Source: an uncultured Gemmatimonadales bacterium
Lineage (GTDB): Bacteria > Gemmatimonadota > Gemmatimonadetes > Gemmatimonadales > GWC2-71-9
Reading direction: 5' to 3'
Length of the DNA stretch: 64,000 nucleotides
Assembly: GCA_963795085.1 (NCBI GenBank)
Contig: CAWCFX010000004.1
Location: 480,001 to 544,000 of the forward strand
The notes under the pieces are model-generated. The model saw only the letters and a list, made by a program, of their open reading frames with translations, did no database searches and had not been told where the DNA came from. The translations under genes and the position numbers were made by a program. Shown here one piece after another: positions 2 through 3,244 of the stretch (the stretch's first letter is position 1; the number at the start of each line of letters is the position of its first letter).

Positions 2-169
2 TCGGCGCTCCGGGAGTATTGGGACAACGATGACACCCGGCAATATTCGCTGATGCCGGACGGGAGTGGATTCTTGATGATGCGGCGCATCCGGCTCACG
101 GCGGACTCCTCGCGGGCCCGCCTTATTCTCCGCGAGCACGTCATTCCCCCTGCCGGTGCTGACCGATGA
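2..169 (+). CDS. 3' end (partial) of a probable further kinase/TolB-like propeller array member
   Basis: Frame 2 reads ...DTRQYSLMPDGSGFLMMRR...RLILREHV..ADR*, resembling the C-termini of the downstream kinases (YDVSPDGRFLFM, FDVSSDGQQFVM). Its TGA overlaps the ATG at 166. Confidence 0.7.
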   Translation, partial: SALREYWDNDDTRQYSLMPDGSGFLMMRRIRLTADSSRARLILREHVIPPAGADR

Positions 170-390
170 CCGGGGCCCGCGATCGACTCGCCGCTGCCCT
201 CGCCGACCGCTACCGCATCGAGCGGGCCGCGACTTACGTCGCTGCTCGGCCCGGCGTCGCTTCGCGACTGCAGCGAGAACATTCTGCTCCGGCCAGACTG
301 CAATCACCCTGCCATGGACCCAGGCGCACCGAATCGCGCAGCGATGGTGTGCCGAGCAGCGACGGAAGTCGCGGAACGATCAGGCAATGA
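166..390 (+). other. Kinase 5' stub (MTGARDRLAAALADRYRIER) fused in frame to the 148-bp element; 74-aa bridging ORF
   Basis: The first 20 codons are a typical array kinase start and the rest is element-derived. ATGA overlaps at both ends (166-169 and 387-390). Confidence 0.7.
227..374. repeat. 148-bp REPIN/MITE-like element, copy 1
   Basis: 26-bp imperfect terminal inverted repeats (ccgcgacttacgtcgctgctcggc ... gccgagcagcgacggaagtcgcgg) with internal hairpins. About 7 differences from the copy at 3084-3231. Confidence 0.9.
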
Positions 391-3029
391 CGGAAGCCCC
401 CGTCCGTCTCACCGCGGCCCTCGCCGACCGCTACCGCATCGAACGGGAACTGGGCGCGGGCGGCATGGCCACGGTCTACCTCGCCCACGACCTGAAGCAC
501 GATCGCCGGGTCGCGATCAAGGTGCTCCGGCCCGAGCTGGCCGCGGTGATCGGGGCCGAGCGGTTTCTCCGGGAGATCCGGACCATCGCCAACCTCCAGC
601 ACCCCCACATCCTCGGCCTGATCGATTCCGGGGAACTGCACGGCACGGCGTACTACGTGATGCCGTTCGTGGATGGCGAGTCCCTCCGCGACCGGTTGAG
701 CCGGGAGAAGCAGCTGCCCATCGCCGACGCGGTCAGGCTGGCCACCGAGGTGGCGGGGGCCCTGGACTACGCCCACCGGCAGGGCGTGATCCACCGGGAC
801 ATCAAGCCCGAGAACATCATGCTGCATGATGGCCGGGCGCTGGTGGCGGACTTCGGCATCGCTTTAGCCGTGAGCAGTGCCGGGGGTAGCCGGATGACCG
901 AGACCGGGATGTCCCTCGGCACCCCGCACTACATGTCCCCCGAGCAGGCGATGGGCGAGCGGGAGATCACCGCGCGGAGCGACGTGTATGCCCTGGGCGC
1001 GATGACCTACGAGATGCTGATCGGCGACCCACCGTTCACCGGCAGCACCGCCCAGGCGATCGTTGCCAAGGTCATGACCGAGAAGCCGGTCTCGCTCCAG
1101 CGGCAGCGGGAACGGGTGCCCGATACGGTAGAGGACGCGGTGCTCACTGCGCTGGAAAAGCTTCCCGCGGACCGGTTCGGCACCGCCGCCGAGTTCGCCG
1201 GTGCGCTCAACGGAGAGGCGGGGGCCGGGAGACCTCCCCGGACCGGCTCGCCGAGCCGGGCGGGGAAGGGGTCTCGTTTCCGCGACCCGGTCGTGGTTAC
1301 CCTTGCGGTACTCGCGGTCGCCGCGGCGGCTCTCGCCTGGGCCGGCCGGGGTTCGACCCCGGCGGACGCGCCGGTGGTGAGCTTCTCGCTGCAGGTCCCC
1401 CGTACCGGCAGCACGGTCCTGGGGTTCAGCTCCGTGGCCATTTCGCCCGATGGCCAGACGCTGGTGTACGTGGGGGCGGGCGATGGCTTCCGCCAGCAGC
1501 TGGTCGCGCGCCGGATCGACGAGGTGACCGAACATCCCCTGCCCGGCACCGGGGAGGGCGCCCATCCGGTGTTTTCGCCCGATGGCCGGTGGGTGGCCTT
1601 CATCCGGGGCAACCAGTTGTTCCGGGTGGCCATCGAGGGGGGCCAACCCCAGTTCCTCGGCAATGCGCAGGGCACCTTCAATGGAATGAGCTGGTCGTCG
1701 TCCGGGGACATCGTCCTGTCGGGCAACACGACGCTGTACCTCCTGCCCCAGGCGGGCGGATCCCCGAAGGAGTTCGCCCGGCGCGATCCGCCCGAAGGGG
1801 AGCTTTACCTGGACACCCCGATGGTGGTGGATGAGGCGGACGTCATTCTCTACTCCAGCTGGGAGGGCACGGGCCCCGGCAGCGCCCGGATCGCCATCGC
1901 GTCGCGGTCCGACGGCACCATCACCGTGCTGGATGTCCCCGGCGTCCACCCGGTCGGAGTCTTCGACGGCATCCTGCTTTACGCCACACCGTCAGGAACC
2001 CTGATGGGTGTGCCCATTGACCTGCCTGGCCGCCGCGTCACTGGCACCCCGGTCCAGCTGTTGACCGATATCGCGGTGAACAATTCGACCGGGATCGCCC
2101 GGATCGGCGTGTCTCGATCAGGTACTCTCATCTATGAGCAGGGCACGGCGGTATCCCGGGTCGTCCTGGTCACCCCCGAAGGGGCAATCCGGAGCCTTGT
2201 CGAGGAGCCGCGGGAGTATGCCTTTCCCCGCCTTTCCCCGGACGGACGGTCGCTCGCCATCACGATCGGGCAGGGCGGTCGCCGGGATATCTGGCTCTTC
2301 GACCGGCGGCTGGGCACCTCGACCCGGCTCACCACCGAGGGACTCACCAACGAGCGCCCGGAGTGGACCCCGGATGGCCGCCGGGTGCTCTACCGCACCG
2401 ACCGGAGCGCCCGGGCCTCAATCTGGTGGCAGCCCGTGGACCGGAGCGCTGAGGCCACGCCGCTGCTGCAGGGGGGAAGGATGGACCTGTTCGAGGCCGT
2501 GGTATCGCCCGACGGGAACATGGTGGCCTACCAGCTGGATACGCTCGGCGCTGACCTCTACGCCCGGCGGCTCTCCGGCGACACGACGCCGATTCCCATC
2601 GCGACCAGCGCCCGGGGCATCGAAACCATGCCACGCATCTCGCCCGATGGCCGCTGGATCGCCTTCACGACCGATGAATCCGGGGTGGACGAAGTGGTCG
2701 TGCAGCCGTTTCCCGGGCCGGGAGGCCGGGTCCAGGTCTCCTCCGGCGGAGGATCACAGCCGGTCTGGTCCCGGGACGGGCGGCAGCTGTTCTACCGCGG
2801 CGGCGGCTCTCTCATGGCGGCGCGGCTGGAGCCGGGCCCGGCCTTCCGGGTGGCATCGCGGACCGCCCTGTTCCCCGACAGCTATTCCTACGCCACCAAC
2901 CCGCACGCGAACTTCGACGTGACGCCGGAGGGCGATTTTGTCCTGCTCGAACCCGTCGGCGAGTCGAAGATGATCGTGATCACCAACTGGGTTTCCCGGA
3001 TGCGGGCCCGGATGGCGGAAGGGCGATAG
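387..3029 (+). CDS. Ser/Thr protein kinase, TM helix, TolB-like (PD40) beta-propeller (kinase A)
   Basis: GAGGMA, VAIK, HRDIKPEN, DFG and GTPHYMSPE motifs; hydrophobic TM segment; SPDG repeats. Start moved to MTEAPVRL by comparison with paralogs. Confidence 0.95.
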   Translation: MTEAPVRLTAALADRYRIERELGAGGMATVYLAHDLKHDRRVAIKVLRPELAAVIGAERFLREIRTIANLQHPHILGLIDSGELHGTAYYVMPFVDGESLRDRLSREKQLPIADAVRLATEVAGALDYAHRQGVIHRDIKPENIMLHDGRALVADFGIALAVSSAGGSRMTETGMSLGTPHYMSPEQAMGEREITARSDVYALGAMTYEMLIGDPPFTGSTAQAIVAKVMTEKPVSLQRQRERVPDTVEDAVLTALEKLPADRFGTAAEFAGALNGEAGAGRPPRTGSPSRAGKGSRFRDPVVVTLAVLAVAAAALAWAGRGSTPADAPVVSFSLQVPRTGSTVLGFSSVAISPDGQTLVYVGAGDGFRQQLVARRIDEVTEHPLPGTGEGAHPVFSPDGRWVAFIRGNQLFRVAIEGGQPQFLGNAQGTFNGMSWSSSGDIVLSGNTTLYLLPQAGGSPKEFARRDPPEGELYLDTPMVVDEADVILYSSWEGTGPGSARIAIASRSDGTITVLDVPGVHPVGVFDGILLYATPSGTLMGVPIDLPGRRVTGTPVQLLTDIAVNNSTGIARIGVSRSGTLIYEQGTAVSRVVLVTPEGAIRSLVEEPREYAFPRLSPDGRSLAITIGQGGRRDIWLFDRRLGTSTRLTTEGLTNERPEWTPDGRRVLYRTDRSARASIWWQPVDRSAEATPLLQGGRMDLFEAVVSPDGNMVAYQLDTLGADLYARRLSGDTTPIPIATSARGIETMPRISPDGRWIAFTTDESGVDEVVVQPFPGPGGRVQVSSGGGSQPVWSRDGRQLFYRGGGSLMAARLEPGPAFRVASRTALFPDSYSYATNPHANFDVTPEGDFVLLEPVGESKMIVITNWVSRMRARMAEGR

Positions 3030-3244
3030 TGGTTCCCCCGGCTCTCGCCACCACCCTGGCCGATCGCTACCGCCTCGAACAGGCCGCGACTTACGTCGCT
3101 GCTCGGCACGGCGTCGCTTCGCGACTGCAGCGAGAACATTCTGCTCCGGCAAGACTGCAATCAACCTGTCATGGACCCAGGCGCACCAACTCGCGCAGCG
3201 ATGGTGTGCCGAGCCGCGACGGAAGTCGCGGGAATAGGCAATGA
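3029..3244 (+). other. Kinase 5' stub (MVPPALATTLADRYRLEQ) fused in frame to the 148-bp element; 71-aa bridging ORF
   Basis: GTG overlaps the TAG of kinase A, and its TGA overlaps the ATG at 3241. Confidence 0.7.
3084..3231. repeat. 148-bp REPIN/MITE-like element, copy 2
   Basis: Same length, terminal inverted repeats and hairpins as 227-374. Confidence 0.9.

Follow-up and report, generated by a model that had tools for sequence, protein, structure and literature searches.

The 64,000-nucleotide stretch of an uncultured Gemmatimonadales genome analysed here (the window; G000:C4:480001-544000, G000 being that genome) opens with 19 kb that form the end of a tandem array of Ser/Thr kinase genes, in which the N-terminal kinase domain is conserved and the C-termini are varied. 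Two successive kinase genes in this array are each preceded by a short kinase 5' fragment (hereafter stub), a 148-bp palindromic element that belongs to the doublets of repetitive extragenic palindromes (REPs) known as REPINs, and a leader with a new start, all genes and reading frames lying on the forward strand. In the first unit, stub 1 (166..226; 20 codons), whose ATG overlaps the TGA of the upstream kinase, is followed by REPIN copy 1 (227..374, with inverted arms at 227-267 and 334-374 and an interior of about 66 bp) and by a leader and new start (375..410) that includes codons 1-8, MTEAPVRL, of kinase K1 (387..3029; 880 aa, with a Pkinase domain, a hydrophobic segment and a PD40 propeller). 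The stub frame continues through the REPIN as a bridging open reading frame (ORF) of 74 aa (166..390), the TGA of which overlaps the ATG of K1. In the second unit, stub 2 (3029..3083) begins with a GTG overlapping the TAG of K1, and not with an ATG as in the original prediction made for this DNA. It is followed by REPIN copy 2 (3084..3231), a leader and new start (3232..3264) with the same eight codons and a leader 3 nt shorter, the frame being kept, and kinase K2 (3241..5073; 610 aa), while a bridging ORF of 71 aa (3029..3244) ends in a stop that overlaps the ATG of K2. Behind its Pkinase domain, K2 carries a C-terminal region without a Pfam match. By eye this region suggests a fold of the alpha/beta-hydrolase type, and it differs from the propeller found in neighbouring kinases.

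Much of the original description was borne out at these positions: both stubs end at the same codon, after the first base of the would-be E codon of ELGxGG, the two elements are identical at 141 of 148 positions and form a long hairpin, and both kinases start with MTEAPVRL and differ in their C-termini. The arrangement does occur twice in the window, but a third stub with an element lies outside it at G000:C4:464975-465118, 15 kb upstream of the window unit, with the same junction, another interior and the opposite orientation. These three elements and a fourth site, a single arm at C4:773560 where there is no kinase, make up the 7 arm matches of G000 at up to 4 mismatches. Positions 3136-3286 are also covered, with 1 difference, by a short contig from a public sequencing run that may be the source sample, so the right-hand junction of copy 2 is not specific to this assembly; among the listed contigs of four DNA runs from one study (small shares, low depth), none bridges a whole unit, and no RNA run was listed as containing this DNA.

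The original prediction took element plus kinase as the unit and proposed that such units are added to the array in the manner of cassettes. K1 and K2, however, show 0 differences in the 24 nucleotides of codons 1-8 and then 5, 5, 3 and 5 differences per 24, the level seen against other paralogs, and in most of the segments compared another kinase is as close or closer to each of the two. The shared unit is the REPIN, the leader and the first eight codons, about 185 bp, and the kinase body is not included; because the repeated unit excludes the kinase, nothing shows that arrays grow in this way. The reported lack of a target-site duplication was misleading, given that a kinase 5' core of about 37 bp is directly repeated on either side of each unit (190-226 and 411-447; 3047-3083 and 3265-3301). 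Nor are the old starts simply abandoned, since each stub frame begins on the previous stop, stays open across the hairpin and terminates within the ATGA where the new kinase starts, despite the 3-nt difference in length.

The element folds as a single long hairpin (z -6.3 as RNA and -6.0 as DNA, with 0 of 200 shuffled sequences equally stable), and each arm consists of a short hairpin with a CCGA-containing foot and a second hairpin. No Rfam family reached its gathering score for the element, the best relevant one being Acido-Lenti-1 with 15 bits against 37 (E 4.1), and folding energy upstream of the kinases did not cleanly separate REPIN leaders. At up to 2 mismatches the arm was found in 15 of 251 family genomes, with at most 12 matches per genome, and free REPIN copies are common, dispersed and extragenic, with variable interiors. 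As to whether the element prefers kinase genes, it recurs at kinase 5' ends, but its family also occupies ordinary intergenic sites: an arm scan of metagenomes placed 0 of 8 loci at a kinase stub, and none of the 12 arm matches in G004 lies on contigs carrying kinase-core matches. In an ordinary spacer of the latter genome, the 32-bp left arm of a REPIN is amplified head-to-tail in 3-4 copies (G004:C7:11490-11732, L004; also L074 and L078), and at another place (G004:C19 about 42040-42280, L025; also L076) a REPIN directly precedes what by eye is an attC-like site of the pattern RYYYAAC...GTTRRRY.

A search for a Y1 or RAYT-type transposase flanked by the same palindrome, as the original prediction had suggested, was successful in related genomes. 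Two inverted arms enclose a 140-aa Y1 transposase in G271 (Pfam Y1_Tnp, E 4e-20), similar arms surround Y1 genes once in G244 and twice in G240, and in G347 a variant arm flanks a Y1 gene, the whole REPtron sitting between two array kinases. Compared with the window arms, 2-3 loop or stem bases differ in G271, G244 and G240, and more in G347. All three Y1 proteins tested against NCBIfam scored as IS200-type (NF033573, 63-77 bits, cut-off 55) and stayed far below the cut-off for NF047646 (20-24 bits, cut-off 80). They depart from classical RAYTs (groups 2 and 3) in that the REP_Tyr_transpos profile scores below its cut-off and the foot is CCGA(G) rather than GTAG or GTGG. The close Y1 homologs in G003 and G004 have no such arms around them, and in G000, whose genome is 93% complete, no cognate Y1 gene with these arms was found; its single intact homolog is flanked by other palindromes, and two further IS200-type loci are broken. 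At G000:C3:370400-371300 (L029), an intact IS200-like Y1 gene has two copies of a different palindrome set upstream and is likely a REPtron of a sister REP type; just outside the window, at G000:C4:546400-547100, a broken IS200-type gene follows about eight 25-bp tandem repeats and palindromes.

On these comparisons the element is identified as a non-autonomous REP doublet of a Gemmatimonadota family of IS200-like Y1 transposases. It is REPIN-like but not a classical RAYT REP, because its arms flank Y1 genes that score as IS200-type and have other feet. With the REPINs, bacterial interspersed mosaic elements (BIMEs) and REPtrons (RAYT, TnpAREP) described by Bertels and Rainey (2011; PMC3116915), it shares two inverted REP-like arms, a variable spacer, a hairpin, dispersed extragenic copies and arms at a Y1 gene, whereas here the GTAG/GTGG foot is absent, the Y1 is IS200-type and not REP_Tyr, copies are few, and many of them stand behind kinase 5' fragments with a spare start. 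Quentin et al. (2018; PMC6006769) describe class 3 TnpA-Y1 genes as having W[TA], a Y----Q motif, a 155-aa class profile and, on either side, atypical hairpins on a CnGA foot, and subclass 1.2 as carrying a Y---Q--HH signature. The present family mixes these features: its flanking hairpins (foot CCGA) and W[TA] are of the class 3 type, its proteins have 140 aa, and those of G244, G240 and G347 carry Y---Q--HH. The main text of that study makes no mention of Gemmatimonadota.

The search brought together 22 REPIN-bearing stubs from 9 genomes belonging to 4 genera, and two shared junctions account for most of them. Junction 1, after ADRYRxER, is identical to the nucleotide in 5 copies, which come from three genomes (G000 with three, G003 and G027 with one each) in 2 genera and include both orientations; a scan of 185,579 genomes for its exact pattern gave 11 matches, only 2 of which are real, both already in the set. 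Junction 2, after GGMA, is found in 6 genomes of 2 genera (four units each in G165 and G240, one each in G019, G359, G312 and G391), its pattern yielding 20 matches in 16 of 401 family genomes, namely 3 known units, 4 new real units and 13 that are not stub units (coding DNA in two cases, as read). In three units the stub ends after GGMAT(V), and in two it has just 8-10 codons. The ADRYRxE sequence put forward in the original prediction as the insertion site bears the junction, at one and the same nucleotide, in five copies, but junctions fall at several positions. An arm followed by a kinase start occurs at 8 places in 6 of the 401 family genomes, 6 of them with stubs and those in G199 and G347 without, and closely spaced core motifs exposed further units in G165 and G240.

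The fetched regions of 9 genomes contain 136 kinases, 125 of them with enough upstream DNA. A REP-like arm lies upstream of 12 of the 15 kinases with a stub and of 22 of the 110 without; the detector is loose, many of these 22 matches being coding DNA, and the regions are not a random sample because they were selected for holding arrays or matches. One arm variant is at junction-2 stubs in all four of its G240 matches, while its 8 matches in G165 comprise 4 stub units, 2 contig ends before a kinase and 2 ordinary spacers. Serial chains of two stub-REPIN units are present in G003, G240 and G312, some stubs are decayed, and the spacers between kinases of G347 contain stub-less REPINs, which represent the precursor arrangement. 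No stub was present among the 16 kinases of G004 and the 7 of G002 examined in large arrays. At G240:C1 about 1395370-1395850 (L162), two serial stubs occur without this REPIN family, and behind the second come a simple repeat and another long palindrome that resembles CGTC-type REPs.

Copies at one junction have related interiors, as expected from descent: at junction 1 the element at G000:464975 resembles that of G027 (z 8.0), as does that of G003 (z 9.8), and junction-2 units have interior and flank in common by eye. The two copies in the window are inverted relative to the other junction-1 copies, yet they align colinearly and their arm subtypes match. We read this as a few origins followed by spread, with the window's copy possibly having arrived independently. 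The cores agree with copying between paralogs in part of the set. In each of the four testable junction-1 stubs, the core is closest to that of the kinase directly behind (ranks 1/12, 1/12, tied 1-2/12 and 1/35; 3 of 37 differences and rank 1 of 12 for stub 1, 6 of 37 and tied best for stub 2), the ranks of copies 1 and 2 not being independent because the core window was picked after these copies had been seen. Among the 16 stubs long enough for a broader comparison (one of them misaligned by an internal deletion and still counted), the match to the own kinase is best or near-best (p<=0.2) in 8, against 15.8% of 95 adjacent intact pairs (Fisher p 0.024), and in G240 one stub matches the leader-derived start of its own kinase at all but 1 of 58 positions. 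At G240:C1:1385000-1465000 and C5:186000-216000 (L162-L167), and in G019 (L197), about 10 of the 25 G240 kinases share a TTG start that a short simple repeat provides (MTIDHRL-like), and for most of them the nearest 450 nt contain no REP arm; leader and start modules are homogenised across the array.

The bridging ORFs recur beyond the window. By hand tally from printed translations, for two units from a translation by eye, the stub frame overlaps the next start in 13 of 21 readable units, in 11 by four bases and in 2 by eight, while 2 stop 10-15 nt short and 6 earlier; the offsets are 2 modulo 3 in 15 units, 1 in 6 and 0 in none. Because most kinase starts are followed by A, a frame match makes the overlap automatic, and the real question is the excess of one frame: in a first set, 8 of 11 distinct offset lengths fall in one class, a binomial chance near 0.01 by hand arithmetic. 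At junction 1 in G000 the stub frame is open in both orientations. Stop-start overlaps of the ATGA or TGATG kind mediate termination-reinitiation elsewhere (PMC6728339), and such overlaps stand at both ends of many bridging ORFs, which may by analogy preserve translational coupling. In the present case the upstream ORF is a by-product, composed of a gene stub and repeat DNA, and the coupling is a hypothesis. By eye, a 17-codon ORF at window 5080-5133 begins 7 nt past the end of K2 and terminates on the ATGA at which the following kinase starts, and a similar one lies upstream of the stub at G000:C4:464867-464920; such mini-ORFs may bridge array spacers even where no REPIN is present.

Taken together, we consider it somewhat probable that ectopic recombination in the conserved core has spread a REPIN-borne leader cassette among paralogs, which would exchange starts while gene number stays constant. 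REPINs would first have settled in ordinary spacers between kinase genes, as seen in G347. A few times, a REPIN with leader and kinase start might then have been placed behind another kinase 5' fragment, through a template switch, a deletion at the hairpin or a Y1 nick, and the result would be the observed structure, a cassette of about 200-320 bp between direct repeats of the kinase core. Ectopic recombination or gene conversion, resolved within the core at either end, could then have copied it into other paralogs, so that the recipient would keep its own start as a stub, have part of its core doubled and gain the donor's leader and first codons, gene number being unchanged. Units whose stub frame crosses the hairpin to the new start would keep the array coupled and may have been preferentially kept. 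Ectopic gene conversion and unequal crossing-over in paralog arrays likewise act in short tracts through a conserved region and leave mosaic kinase 5' ends, but here the tract carries a non-homologous insert (REPIN, leader and start) and duplicates the recipient's core. The simpler alternative named in the original prediction, one origin followed by recombination in the conserved 5' region, comes close to this explanation.

Several observations weigh against such spread or its coupling. Half of the 16 testable stubs do not match their own kinase, and 3 of 16 stubs lack an arm of this REPIN family. Simple homologous transfer would not predict that, with elements 95% identical, the two stubs of the window disagree at 2 of the 5 bases leading up to the junction. 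The interior of the window's copies shows only a weak relationship to those at the other junction-1 sites (z 3.4 to G003, no more than the 3.2-5.6 to free G004 copies), and leaders differ among junction-1 copies. None of 4 hold-out units has a clean four-base ATGA overlap (one overlaps by 8 nt, one stops 10 nt early and two at least 50 nt early); they split 2:2 in offset class modulo 3 and support coupling only weakly. Unit counts also overstate independence because the units are related, and the read-through count is a hand tally.

A bolder scenario, possible but doubtful in our judgement, is that an element of about 200 bp, non-autonomous and carrying its own replacement start, moves between kinase paralogs by homing, in a reaction that Y1 initiates and homology resolves. 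It would spare its target, turn the displaced start into a coupling bridging ORF, be able to flip, and rewire leaders and expression across the array. It is unlikely that each junction was made anew by Y1-catalysed, site-preferring insertion, with one REPIN end joined to a fixed kinase 5' site and the other resolved by homology. The single nucleotide shared by five copies in both orientations and the stub sequences that differ right up to the junction fit that idea, and TnpAREP cuts at a distance from the REP and can accept any 3'-OH (PMC3479197). Characterised TnpAREP enzymes, which belong to other Y1 groups and have a different guide, follow a C|T cut rule (PMC3479197, PMC8266576); junction 1, read from the sequence, is not at C|T on either strand, and by eye no consistent C|T cut was found at the junctions. 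Against it also stand the several junction positions, the lack of a G000 Y1 gene with these arms and the ancestry that copies at one junction mostly share.

Equally improbable, or slightly more so, is that each stub is the remnant of another kinase gene that was lost up to a REPIN standing before the next kinase. Stubs do start at a normal array gene start and end at the REP boundary, 8 of 16 are unlike the next kinase, stub-less REPINs before kinases exist and some stubs are decayed; however, the other 8 match their own kinase, the G240 stub copies the leader-derived start of its own kinase almost exactly, and two exact junctions shared across genera would not be expected from independent deletions. 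Quite improbable, too, is that the units evolved as a regulatory switch of kinase translation, whether by inversion or through their structure. Junction 1 has both orientations, each with an open stub frame in G000, and junction 2 persists in 6 genomes of 2 genera, but the difference in orientation is seen between loci, the unit is present at a minority of kinases, and stubs decay. Very improbable, finally, and largely refuted by the end of K1/K2 identity at codon 8, is the addition of element-kinase cassettes at ADRYRxE by a dedicated enzyme, for which two tandem units with identical new starts and the strong association of stubs with REP arms might speak, but neither K1 nor K2 is followed by the 3' remainder of an interrupted kinase, the large arrays of G004 and G002 show no stub among the kinases examined, the element ends contain no attC cores (RYYYAAC/GTTRRRY), and G000 has 3 elements per 13 array kinases listed, not one per gene.

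Elsewhere in the window, five repeats of about 90 bp lie at 37925-38445, which we take to be of the Asp-rich calcium-binding type of OmpA-family proteins, and a pyrimidine-rich, heptamer-like repeat tract is present in two copies 19 kb apart (25327-25359 and 44325-44357).

Prophages or integrative and conjugative elements (ICEs) may bring, in the attachment site attP, a replacement for the gene end at which they integrate, so that the target stays intact. The cassettes resemble such gene-restoring integration in that the insert substitutes for a displaced gene end, but here it measures only about 200-320 bp, the 5' end is replaced, no integrase is involved and the targets are many paralogs. 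In listings and abstract openings from the openly accessible part of the literature, no description of REPIN-borne kinase starts was found. REPINs themselves are known, and what is new in this real, recurrent feature is their behaviour in paralog arrays. The units leave array growth unexplained, its mechanism not being shown by them, and they call for caution in that short 'kinase fragments' in such arrays would be recombination products and not lost genes. They also point to a little-studied family of IS200-like REPtrons with identifiable transposase-REP pairs, and they suggest a route by which REP-type repeats may persist in tightly coupled operons, with a spare start and paralog homology taking the place of free intergenic space.

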